64,000 nt of DNA, taken from positions 42,026-106,025 of the forward strand of contig NZ_CAXBKP010000008.1 in NCBI RefSeq assembly GCF_963976445.1, given 5' to 3'. This stretch comes from an uncultured Gimesia sp. Its GTDB lineage: Bacteria; Planctomycetota; Planctomycetia; Planctomycetales; Planctomycetaceae. The notes under the pieces are model-generated. The model did not search any database and was not told where the DNA came from. It saw nothing but the letters and a program-made list of their open reading frames with translations. This document shows, one piece after another, positions 4,009 through 7,724 of this stretch. Position numbers and translations under genes: made by a program. The first letter of the stretch is position 1. The number at the start of each line of letters is the position of its first letter.

Positions 4009-4148
4009 CACTCGACGAAGTAATGGGCAGAGTTTTCCCTGTGACGTCGCACGCGCGGATCACAAGGTCCGAACCAAATTGAAAAGTTAAGTGGGCCGGG
4101 CAGGATTTGAACCAGCTTTGCCATGTACTCCACTCCGGCAGTCGAGTG
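4009..4148 (-). ncRNA. Y RNA-like unit Y4 (YrlA-like; D arm replaced by a longer hairpin)
   Basis: 8-bp terminal stem CACTCGAC/GTCGAGTG, 5' motif TGCCGGAGTGGAGTACATG, 3' motif ACTCTG...CTTC, T arm GCTGG-TTCAAAT-CCTGC. Lies immediately upstream of rsr. Confidence 0.8.
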
Positions 4149-4164
4149 AGTTTTGTTAAAAAAT

Positions 4165-4298
4165 GATCGACGAAGTTGTTGAACCAGAGTTTTTTTCCAA
4201 TGCTCTGCCAATTGAGCTACAGCGTGGCATGCTTAAACAGGGAACGCTGGTGGGGCTCGAACCCACAATAGTCATGTACTCCCATTCGGCAGTCGATC
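4165..4298 (-). ncRNA. yrlA: Y RNA-like unit Y3 (YrlA-type tRNA mimic)
   Basis: Stem GATCGAC/GTCGATC and motif TGCCGAATGGGAGTACATG. T arm GTGGG-TTCGAGC-CCCAC precedes a loop-closed acceptor stem CAGCGT/ACGCTG and D arm TAGCTC-AATTGGCA-GAGC, the permuted order known for YrlA. Confidence 0.85.
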
Positions 4299-4354
4299 CT
4301 GTTTAAAGTGACGTTGTAGTCCTCTCAGAAAGTCAATATTTCAGTTTCAAAAAA

Positions 4355-4497
4355 GACCGACGAAGTTGTGTACCAGAGTTTTTACGGTGCTCTAACCTTT
4401 GAGCTACGGCGCGACACGCTTTGTGAAATAGCGCCGGTGGGACTCGAACCCACAACCACCGGGATCTAAACCATGTACTCCAGTTCGGCAGTCGGTC
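4355..4497 (-). ncRNA. yrlA: Y RNA-like unit Y2 (YrlA-type tRNA mimic)
   Basis: Stem GACCGAC/GTCGGTC, motif TGCCGAACTGGAGTACATG pairing with ACTCTGG, T arm GTGGG-TTCGAGT-CCCAC, loop-closed acceptor CGGCGC/GCGCCG, D arm TAGCTC-AAAGGTTA-GAGC. Confidence 0.85.
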
Positions 4498-4553
4498 CTG
4501 TTTGAAAGTGATCATGTTATCCCAACGAATTGTTGGATTTTTATTACAACCTT

Positions 4554-4620
4554 CCAACGAAGGATTTGCTCAGACACGGGTTCTTTTTTACAGAAAGATG
4601 TAGTCCGAGCCGGCAGTTGG
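4554..4620 (-). ncRNA. Short Y RNA-like unit Y1 without a tRNA-like domain
   Basis: CCAAC-TGCCG-GCTCGGAC-TACAT...GTCTGAGC-AAATC-CTTC-GTTGG. Same stem, internal loop and ACAT signature as Y2-Y4, but capped by a simple hairpin. Confidence 0.7.

Positions 4621-5294: not shown

Positions 5295-7724
<2,430 letters not shown>

Follow-up and report, generated by a model that had tools for sequence, protein, structure and literature searches.

The locus described here raises the question of whether the four structured elements that precede a Ro60 gene (rsr) in an uncultured Gimesia sp. are Y RNAs and, if they are, what a single Rsr protein would do with several of them. The stretch of DNA analysed (the window) comprises 64,000 nucleotides (nt) of contig NZ_CAXBKP010000008.1 (positions 42,026 to 106,025 of the forward strand), and a reading of its letters alone, hereafter the original prediction, had proposed a tandem array of four structurally different Y-RNA-like genes at positions 4009-4620, together serving one Ro60. 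We consider it highly probable that the locus is a real, conserved multi-Y-RNA array that forms the non-coding part of the planctomycete rsr operon. As delimited here, the array lies between three odd tRNA genes and rsr, with every element on the minus strand, and consists of four full units (A-D), a mini unit (E) and the scar of a further class (L). The predicted count of four thus stands for the full units, while the array also has the 45-nt mini unit and the scar:

4620-4554, minus strand: Y unit A, 67 nt, helix CCAAC/GTTGG; fold z-score -2.84; 38 distinct homologues
4537-4521, minus strand: scar hairpin TCCAAC-aattc-GTTGGG of the L class, recognised by comparison with relatives L004-L012
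4497-4355, minus strand: Y unit B, 143 nt, helix GACCGAC/GTCGGTC; match to the Rfam family YrlA of 46.4 bits, E 8e-9, over the full model length
4298-4165, minus strand: Y unit C, 134 nt, helix GATCGAC/GTCGATC; YrlA match of 34.8 bits, E 2e-5
4148-4009, minus strand: Y unit D, 140 nt, helix CACTCGAC/GTCGAGTG; 25 distinct homologues
3998-3954, minus strand: mini unit E, 45 nt, in the rsr leader; fold z-score -3.25; conserved in the genus
3941-3937, minus strand: Shine-Dalgarno sequence GGAGG of rsr
3934-2321, minus strand: rsr, Ro60 orthologue, 537 amino acids; Pfam TROVE and vWA_Ro60

All of the units are found 20-690 nt upstream of rsr and on its strand, within the distance of at most 4 kb from a Ro60/Rsr gene that is used as a criterion for YrlA.

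A shared closing module upstream of a Ro60 orthologue

The predicted neighbourhood of Ro60 is borne out by the open reading frame (ORF) directly downstream of the units, which has the TROVE and vWA_Ro60 domains of Ro60/Rsr proteins, matches Rsr of Deinococcus radiodurans over its full length (2NVO, residues 13-521, E 1.3e-26) and also matches human and Xenopus Ro60 (9NEN, 1YVP). Each of the units A-D is closed by a perfect terminal helix, and all four carry the 5′ motif YRAC-UGCCG..GGAGUACAU (GGA(G/C)TACAT at its end in DNA letters) and the 3′ motif CUUCGUYG. A sequence check therefore agrees with the original prediction on the common terminal stem and on both motifs, and equally on the terminal stems that differ in sequence yet pair perfectly, which holds for all four helices. 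The strict 5′ motif has ten matches on the two strands of the 7.09-megabase genome. Four of these are the units, gathered in a 600-bp stretch, and the four other matches that were inspected have no 3′ partner, so that the array stands far beyond chance. A lax regular expression combining helix and motif, run over the whole genome, returned 125 hits, mostly spurious, and the stricter 5′ motif was adopted in its place.

The same module is conserved in 356 distinct planctomycete units, for which the 5′ consensus is CCGAC-UGCCG-N4-5-GGAGUACAU and the 3′ consensus C(U)UCGUCG. The terminal helix is 100% paired, with compensatory changes in the three classes tested, as is generally expected of the closing helix of Y RNAs, and the flanking loop and the second helix beside it are also conserved. 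The Rsr-binding region of YrlA aligns with the module base for base (cggCGA-AUGCu ... cUuG-UCGccg in Rfam, CCGAC-UGCCG ... CUUC-GUCGG here), the planctomycete clade having CGAC-UG at the position where YrlA has CGAA-UG. This correspondence makes Rsr binding the natural common function of the units, and docking on Rsr is to be expected of the closing module, viewed as the homologue of the site by which YrlA binds Rsr.

The original prediction had further invoked a Ro-binding motif of the GNCGAA type, which is absent from the RNA strand of the window units; this strand is the minus strand, as judged from the T arm, the D arm and the orientation of rsr. Read on the plus strand, the 3′ motif becomes GACGAAG (4355-4365, 4165-4175 and 4009-4020), which fits GNCGAAN0-1G but on the wrong strand, and this probably explains the motif that had been proposed.

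Similarity to YrlA and observations against a Y RNA identity

At the Rfam gathering thresholds only two tRNAs were found in the window. With E-value reporting, the YrlA model (RF02553, gathering score 69 bits) matches units B and C across its whole length, at scores that are significant though below gathering, while units A and D give no match. Both alignments proceed from a T arm through a closed, acceptor-like stem to a D arm, in keeping with the permuted order of T arm, loop-closed acceptor and D arm that had been predicted for two of the units. YrlA scores across the genus lie between 35 and 53 bits and, as none of them exceeds the Rfam threshold, routine annotation misses all of these RNAs.

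Several observations weigh against a Y RNA identity and are best considered together. The strict YrlA signature GNCGAAN0-1G is matched by only 11 of the 356 distinct units across the phylum. No unit attains 69 bits, either here or in any of the 22 genomes of the genus (best 53.2 bits), and sub-threshold YrlA hits also arise at adjacent tRNAs, both at a Tyr-Gly pair on C33 and in 9 of 14 control genomes. Characterised Y RNAs are quoted at 80-130 nt, a range that A falls short of (67 nt) and that B-D exceed (134-143 nt); B, C and D, taken singly, also have weak fold z-scores (-0.7 to -1.9). Rsr itself is divergent, scoring 100 bits against the 900-bit cut-off of the NCBIfam Rsr equivalog. A sigma-70 promoter scan found none in the array, and the extracytoplasmic function (ECF) label that we give below to a promoter-like motif depends on an ECF-sigma consensus that we take to be GGAAC-N16-17-GTC/CGT. 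Given that sub-threshold YrlA hits are non-specific, the case for Y RNAs rests on the closing module, the adjacency to rsr and the covariation rather than on the Rfam score.

The tRNA-like interior of units B and C also invites an explanation without Rsr, in which the RNAs would act on ribosomes, tRNA-modifying enzymes or tRNA-targeting toxins as tRNA-like decoys or sponges, and the link with rsr would reflect co-regulation only. It is consistent with this that B and C keep the canonical tRNA core (U8, A14, GG and the T loop) while the neighbouring tRNAs do not, and that YrlA-like elements devoid of the Y-type stem exist away from the array. One such orphan, with a T arm, a closed acceptor-like stem and a D-like arm, is found in the same genome (C12:39855-39979, plus strand), and others are found in two relatives (G020:C1:2734580-2734705 and G004:C1:4822853-4822975), the latter of which has no rsr; these elements score 36-38 bits against YrlA, lack the Y-type closing motif, lie away from rsr and are not tandem tRNAs. 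Yet the one feature that all classes have in common is the closing helix with its loop, the part that appears homologous to the Rsr-binding module of YrlA, and in this genome the units occur only beside rsr. We regard a role independent of Rsr as very unlikely.

Covariation within each class

Compensatory variation in the stems, which the original prediction had read from the window paralogues, is seen among them and much more strongly among their homologues. Each window class recurs in 25-66 distinct sequences from planctomycete rsr loci, with helices that are 85-100% paired. Pairs were counted in MAFFT alignments for structures that were named by us or obtained from RNAalifold, in a test that is not phylogeny-aware.

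Class A is a short unit made up of the terminal helix and a second helix, without a tRNA-like domain, and in this it is YrlB/Yrn2-like. Its 38 distinct sequences start 0-8 nt after a tRNA-Cys(GCA). Standard pairs occupy 97.2% of the cells, whereas sliding the partners lowers the share to 16-42%; both sides have changed in 7 of 13 pairs, and none of 500 shuffles reaches the observed covariation score.

For classes B and C, 66 non-redundant sequences were compared (slid controls 2-63%). The terminal helix is 100% paired, with covariation at four of its seven pairs; the T stem is 99.7% paired (three of five pairs covary) and the acceptor-like stem 97% paired (five of six). The D stem is 100% paired and invariant, and the second helix, GGAGU/ACUCU, is 85% paired with some covariation. 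Unit D departs from this plan in that its T arm has a central mismatch, its acceptor-like stem spans 8 bp and a long hairpin takes the place of the D arm. Across the 25 distinct sequences of class D the main helices are 94-100% paired, and compensatory changes are present in every helix, the long hairpin included; the acceptor-like stem of the window copy contains a single C.U mismatch.

It could be argued that the units are nothing but decayed remnants of a tRNA array or of a repeat family, that is, functionless tandem tRNA pseudogenes that mimic YrlA. The sub-threshold hits at adjacent tRNAs would fit such an origin, as would the setting of the locus within tRNA arrays and the deletion of the L class in this genome. 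The units, however, have neither an anticodon arm nor an open acceptor end, their order and position are conserved, and strong purifying selection together with compensatory changes is evident in all classes across orders of the Planctomycetota. Such a functionless origin seems to us extremely improbable.

Array size and age of the paralogues

An rsr gene is present in 13 of the 22 genomes of the genus and is widespread across the Planctomycetota. We scanned 98 rsr loci for helix-closed units of the pattern YRAC-UGC...[AC]CAU ... YCGU; a looser helix-closed scan (YRAC-UGC...YCGT) counted 391 hits in the orientation of rsr and 51 in the opposite one. Array size was counted at 79 planctomycete loci, those whose upstream flank measures 1400 nt or more, and the number of full units there ranges from one to nine. 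The mode is four (25 loci), and larger arrays are found with five units in 16 loci, six in 9, seven in 4, eight in 2 and nine in 1. Two rsr genes, both having their own Y RNA array, are present in some planctomycete genomes (HK-STAS-PLAN-18, loci L023 and L035; G1-WW12-08, loci L021 and L051).

Units B and C are 69% identical to one another, while each is 82-90% identical to its own orthologues in other species, and the two fall into separate clades of the genus (support 96/94 for B and 90/91 for C). The unit classes also recur in other families and orders of the phylum. Taken together, the separate clades and this recurrence indicate that the diversity is old and maintained, and does not stem from a recent local expansion. 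The paralogous expansion of the original prediction is therefore upheld insofar as B and C are paralogues, but it was neither recent nor local, since the classes are of ancient origin and shared between planctomycete orders. The further proposal, that one Ro60 has several effector RNAs, is probably correct, as it fits a shared binding module combined with differing inner domains. Of the array, the analysis shows the sequence, structure, covariation, synteny and conservation.

The leader element and a cis-acting alternative

In mini unit E, a 6-bp hairpin that is terminator-like by score is enclosed by a closing helix of the Y type (GGUUCGAC-UGC.../...UUUUCGUCGGACC); a U run follows the hairpin, and the element ends 20 nt before the start codon of rsr. 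It is kept in the genus, where the replacement of CGAC/GUCG by CGGC/GCCG is the one compensatory change in an otherwise fixed core. Y-like units of 45-143 nt that end no more than 60 nt ahead of the rsr ATG were counted across the phylum in 45 unit-locus pairs, from about 44 loci; in most cases the distance is 16-28 nt, and a U run and GGAGG come next. A palindromic repeat resembling repetitive extragenic palindromic (REP) sequences or miniature inverted-repeat transposable elements (MITEs), GCATTAAAGGGGTCTGGTCTC...GAGACCAGACCCCTTTAATGC, varies in its insertion point among relatives; it sits between the last Y unit and rsr in L002, L003, L005, L008, L009 and L010; it is also found upstream of the L unit in L005, and in L003 it appears to replace the leader mini unit.

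The arrangement around the rsr start suggests a cis-acting alternative, namely that the units make up an extended, structured 5′ leader on the rsr mRNA, with Rsr operators or attenuators in cis and no separate stable RNAs. The units are on the rsr strand and run straight into its ribosome-binding site, E and the last unit of some 44 other loci end within 60 nt of the ATG with a U run by the Shine-Dalgarno sequence, U runs follow most units, and the array scan detected no internal sigma-70 promoters. Five conserved classes with covarying inner domains and complete tRNA-like cores are nevertheless hard to explain as operators alone, and the Y RNAs of Salmonella and D. radiodurans are cut from operon transcripts and are stable all the same (PMC4201824). 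In planctomycete loci, moreover, the array is often more than 1 kb away from rsr. An exclusively cis-acting leader is in our judgement unlikely.

Variant tRNA genes and a predicted promoter

The units are preceded on the minus strand by a promoter-like motif and three tRNA genes:

4941-4914, minus strand: promoter-like motif GCGAACC-N15-CTGTCT; two fixed blocks in 12 of 12 genus loci
4864-4793, minus strand: tRNA-Arg(TCT), G8/G14; ARAGORN; Rfam tRNA 39.9 bits
4780-4707, minus strand: tRNA-Arg(GCG), G8/G14; ARAGORN; Rfam tRNA 36.4 bits
4700-4629, minus strand: tRNA-Cys(GCA), G8/G14; ARAGORN; Rfam 32.9 bits

All three tRNAs have G8 and G14 in place of U8 and A14, and CCA is encoded in none of them. 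The genome has 64 tRNA genes in total and, because canonical Cys-GCA (contig C11), Arg-TCT and Arg-ACG genes lie outside the locus, the three are extra copies. The same G8/G14 combination is found in the array tRNAs of the phylum, in 43 of 48 Cys(GCA), 23 of 25 Arg(GCG) and 27 of 28 Arg(TCG) genes. tRNA arrays in relatives extend to at least 16 genes; tRNA-Arg(GCG) is conserved in them, tRNA-Cys(GCA) comes last in most loci with tRNAs, and a short Y unit begins within 8 nt after tRNA-Cys(GCA) in 38 loci with distinct short-unit sequences. The tRNA-Arg(TCT) of the window is the orthologue of the Arg(TCG) of relatives, with the same body and a shifted anticodon. Two further compact tRNA arrays are present in the same genome (C18:75478-76754, 12 genes; C2:196540-197057, 5 genes), several of whose members are odd at position 8/14, so that these two arrays and the three window tRNAs amount to about 20 accessory tRNA genes beside the housekeeping set.

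The blocks GCGAACC and CTGTCT are identical in all 12 genus loci, whereas the 15-nt spacer between them varies in sequence, and the motif is placed about 50 nt upstream of the first tRNA. In upstream regions with enough flank, the looser form GAACY-N14-17-YGTC(T/A) occurs 52 times in the forward direction against 6 in reverse, usually 30-80 nt before the first tRNA or the first Y unit. Two conserved blocks at a fixed spacing constitute a promoter signature, and we predict that 4941-4914 is a promoter of the ECF-sigma type (-35 GAAC, -10 GTCT). A 'unit 0' covering about 4942-4879 (3′ TTTCGTTGG) was considered as a further Y RNA and rejected; it has no 5′ motif, and the conserved blocks with their variable spacer of a fixed 15 nt mean that it is better read as a promoter and leader.

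Further upstream is the gene for the catalase-peroxidase KatG (5295-7676, minus strand). A strong 15-bp terminator (5232-5199), with a 330-nt spacer next to it, sets katG apart from the unit of tRNAs, Y RNAs and rsr. On the other side, the ORFs at 1634-1927, 821-1348 and 121-765 were considered as conserved partner genes 3′ of rsr and rejected, as they are kept with rsr only in close relatives; a family search gave no match for any of the three.

The L class and its likeness to 23S rRNA

The scar between units A and B marks a place that in relatives L004-L012 is occupied by a unit of 178-189 nt, TCCAACTGCC...CTTCGTTGGG. Such an L unit is present in most relatives, where it measures 170-190 nt (TCCAACUGCC...CUUCGUUGGG). 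All that is left of it in the window and in L002 and L003, the two closest relatives of the window, is the pair of L closing strands, joined as a hairpin, which is the mark of a shared internal deletion of the L unit. A search of Rfam gave no match for the L class.

Comparison with 23S rRNA drew on the complete genomes of the genus, as the assembly of the window lacks a 23S rRNA. L units (for example L010:608-794, or about 1470-1660 of L101 from G011) contain AUGACGGUCCUAAGGUAGCGA, which is identical to a segment of 23S rRNA domain IV and corresponds to the 3′ strand of helix 69 (H69) with the linker to H71. The exact match measures 21 nt in 24 of the 44 distinct L units; in L005, L008 and L069 it takes in the H69 loop and extends to as much as 29 nt. 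The identical stretch is followed by a mini H71-like hairpin and GUGAAUGG. A 16-mer of the match occurs nowhere else in complete genomes of the genus than in 23S rRNA and the L unit. From this likeness, the L class looks like a Y RNA that mimics rRNA.

Discussion

Loci with more than one Y RNA have been encountered before. A total of 355 YrlA-like sequences no further than 4 kb from rsr has been identified in 254 bacteria and 22 phages (Chen et al. 2014, PMC4201824), so that some loci have several; known Y RNAs lie on the strand of rsr and are modular, each of the three characterised bacterial species has at least two of them, and a Yrn2-tRNAAsp-Yrn1 precursor is made in D. radiodurans (PMC4201824). 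The figure of one or two Y RNAs per characterised locus given in the original prediction is thus an understatement, and both a Ro60 with multiple Y RNAs and the co-transcription of Y RNAs with tRNA were already known. The planctomycete locus differs in how large and how diverse in class its arrays are, in its variant motif, in the conservation of the 3′ strand and of a second helix, in having a D-type variant and a mini unit in the leader, in the fusion of a non-canonical tRNA array to the Y units and in its conserved promoter motif. The phylum-wide locus of tRNAs, Y RNAs and rsr appears to be undescribed in the searchable literature, in which no paper linking Y RNA or Ro60 with Planctomycetes or with tRNA arrays was found.

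The closest relatives of units B and C are the YrlA RNAs (S. Typhimurium, M. smegmatis and more than 250 species; PMC4201824), which are likewise adjacent to rsr and on its strand, are closed by a stem whose 5′ strand is conserved, and enclose a T arm, a closed acceptor-like stem and a D arm, the tRNA core being canonical. Units B and C differ from them in having CGAC-UGCC instead of CGAA-UGCU in the module, which puts them one or two bases off GNCGAAN0-1G; in the planctomycete units the 3′ strand (CUUCGUCG) and the second helix GGAGU/ACUCU with ACAU are also conserved, and two paralogues, sometimes three, are maintained per genome. Unit A can be set beside YrlB (S. Typhimurium, M. smegmatis) and Yrn2 (D. 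radiodurans), which are similarly short, have no full tRNA-like domain and share a locus with a YrlA-type RNA. Despite these parallels there is no detectable sequence relation, and unit A carries the planctomycete binding module and begins 0-8 nt after any tRNA-Cys(GCA) that precedes it.

With regard to layout, rsr in the D. radiodurans locus (Chen et al. 2000, 2014) is likewise preceded, on its own strand, by Y RNAs and a tRNA. That polycistron gives one precursor, is stress-induced and has further small RNAs in the locus, and a single stress-responsive precursor is predicted for the array described here as well. The latter opens with three non-canonical extra tRNAs (at least 16 in relatives), which four to nine Y-like units follow, and its module is of the YrlA type and not of the metazoan type. 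The Thermus phage phiLo encodes Yrl1 and Yrl2 upstream of phiRo60 (PMC12135203), multiple Y-like RNAs recognised by a CGAA-type motif and a 5′-3′ stem. These are two units in a phage genome for which binding was assayed in vitro; the planctomycete arrays hold more units and more classes. Vertebrate Y1, Y3, Y4 and Y5 present the same principle of two to four paralogues with a common Ro-binding stem and a differing loop domain, but they are RNA polymerase III genes with separate promoters and have no tRNA-like modules, and there is no sign of common descent.

We infer that the locus is transcribed as a whole, that the RNAs are processed from this transcript, bind Rsr and reach distinct effectors, and that rsr is autoregulated, and we envisage these events as follows. 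A stress promoter of the ECF-sigma type (4941-4914) would drive one transcript comprising the three tRNAs, the four Y RNAs, the Y relic, the leader element and the rsr mRNA, from which tRNA-processing and other ribonucleases would excise the individual RNAs. As unit A starts 8 nt after the discriminator of tRNA-Cys, tRNA 3′ processing would create its 5′ end, while B, C and D would be freed by endonucleolytic cuts and by trimming to their closing helices. The shared module, composed of the helix NNCGAC/GUCGNN, an internal loop of UGCCG on the 5′ side and CUUC on the 3′ side, the helix GGAGU/ACUCU and then ACAU, would dock on Rsr. The inner domains, which A lacks, which in B and C amount to a full tRNA-like core and which in D combine a T arm, an acceptor-like stem and a long hairpin, may then gate Rsr or tether it to different partners. 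Element E, located beside the Shine-Dalgarno sequence, could serve for feedback by free Rsr on its own synthesis or for attenuation of read-through. We know of no binding target for YrlA's tRNA-like domain. For Yrn1 and Yrn2, deletion of rsr entails loss of the RNAs. A precedent for tethering is provided by Yrn1, which tethers Rsr to PNPase in D. radiodurans, and YrlA is described as offering a tRNA-like surface (PMC4201824; bioRxiv 10.1101/312249).

A speculative and rather doubtful extension of this multi-Y-RNA array is that it forms a panel of at least five classes, each mimicking a different RNA of translation: the tRNA core in B and C, the T arm and acceptor-like stem in D, and H69-H71 of 23S rRNA in the L class of relatives, all of them co-transcribed with spare G8/G14 tRNAs from an ECF-type stress promoter. 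If this were true, the locus would be a dedicated module for the surveillance, repair or decoying of damaged or attacked translation RNAs, and the L class would be the first case of an rRNA-mimicking Y RNA. Should the rRNA-mimic class of relatives be confirmed, Y RNAs would prove to imitate rRNA as well as tRNA. With the leader mini unit, autoregulation of Ro60 becomes open to testing, and the phylum-wide arrays of distinct, covarying Y RNA classes provide a natural comparative panel for the function of effector domains.

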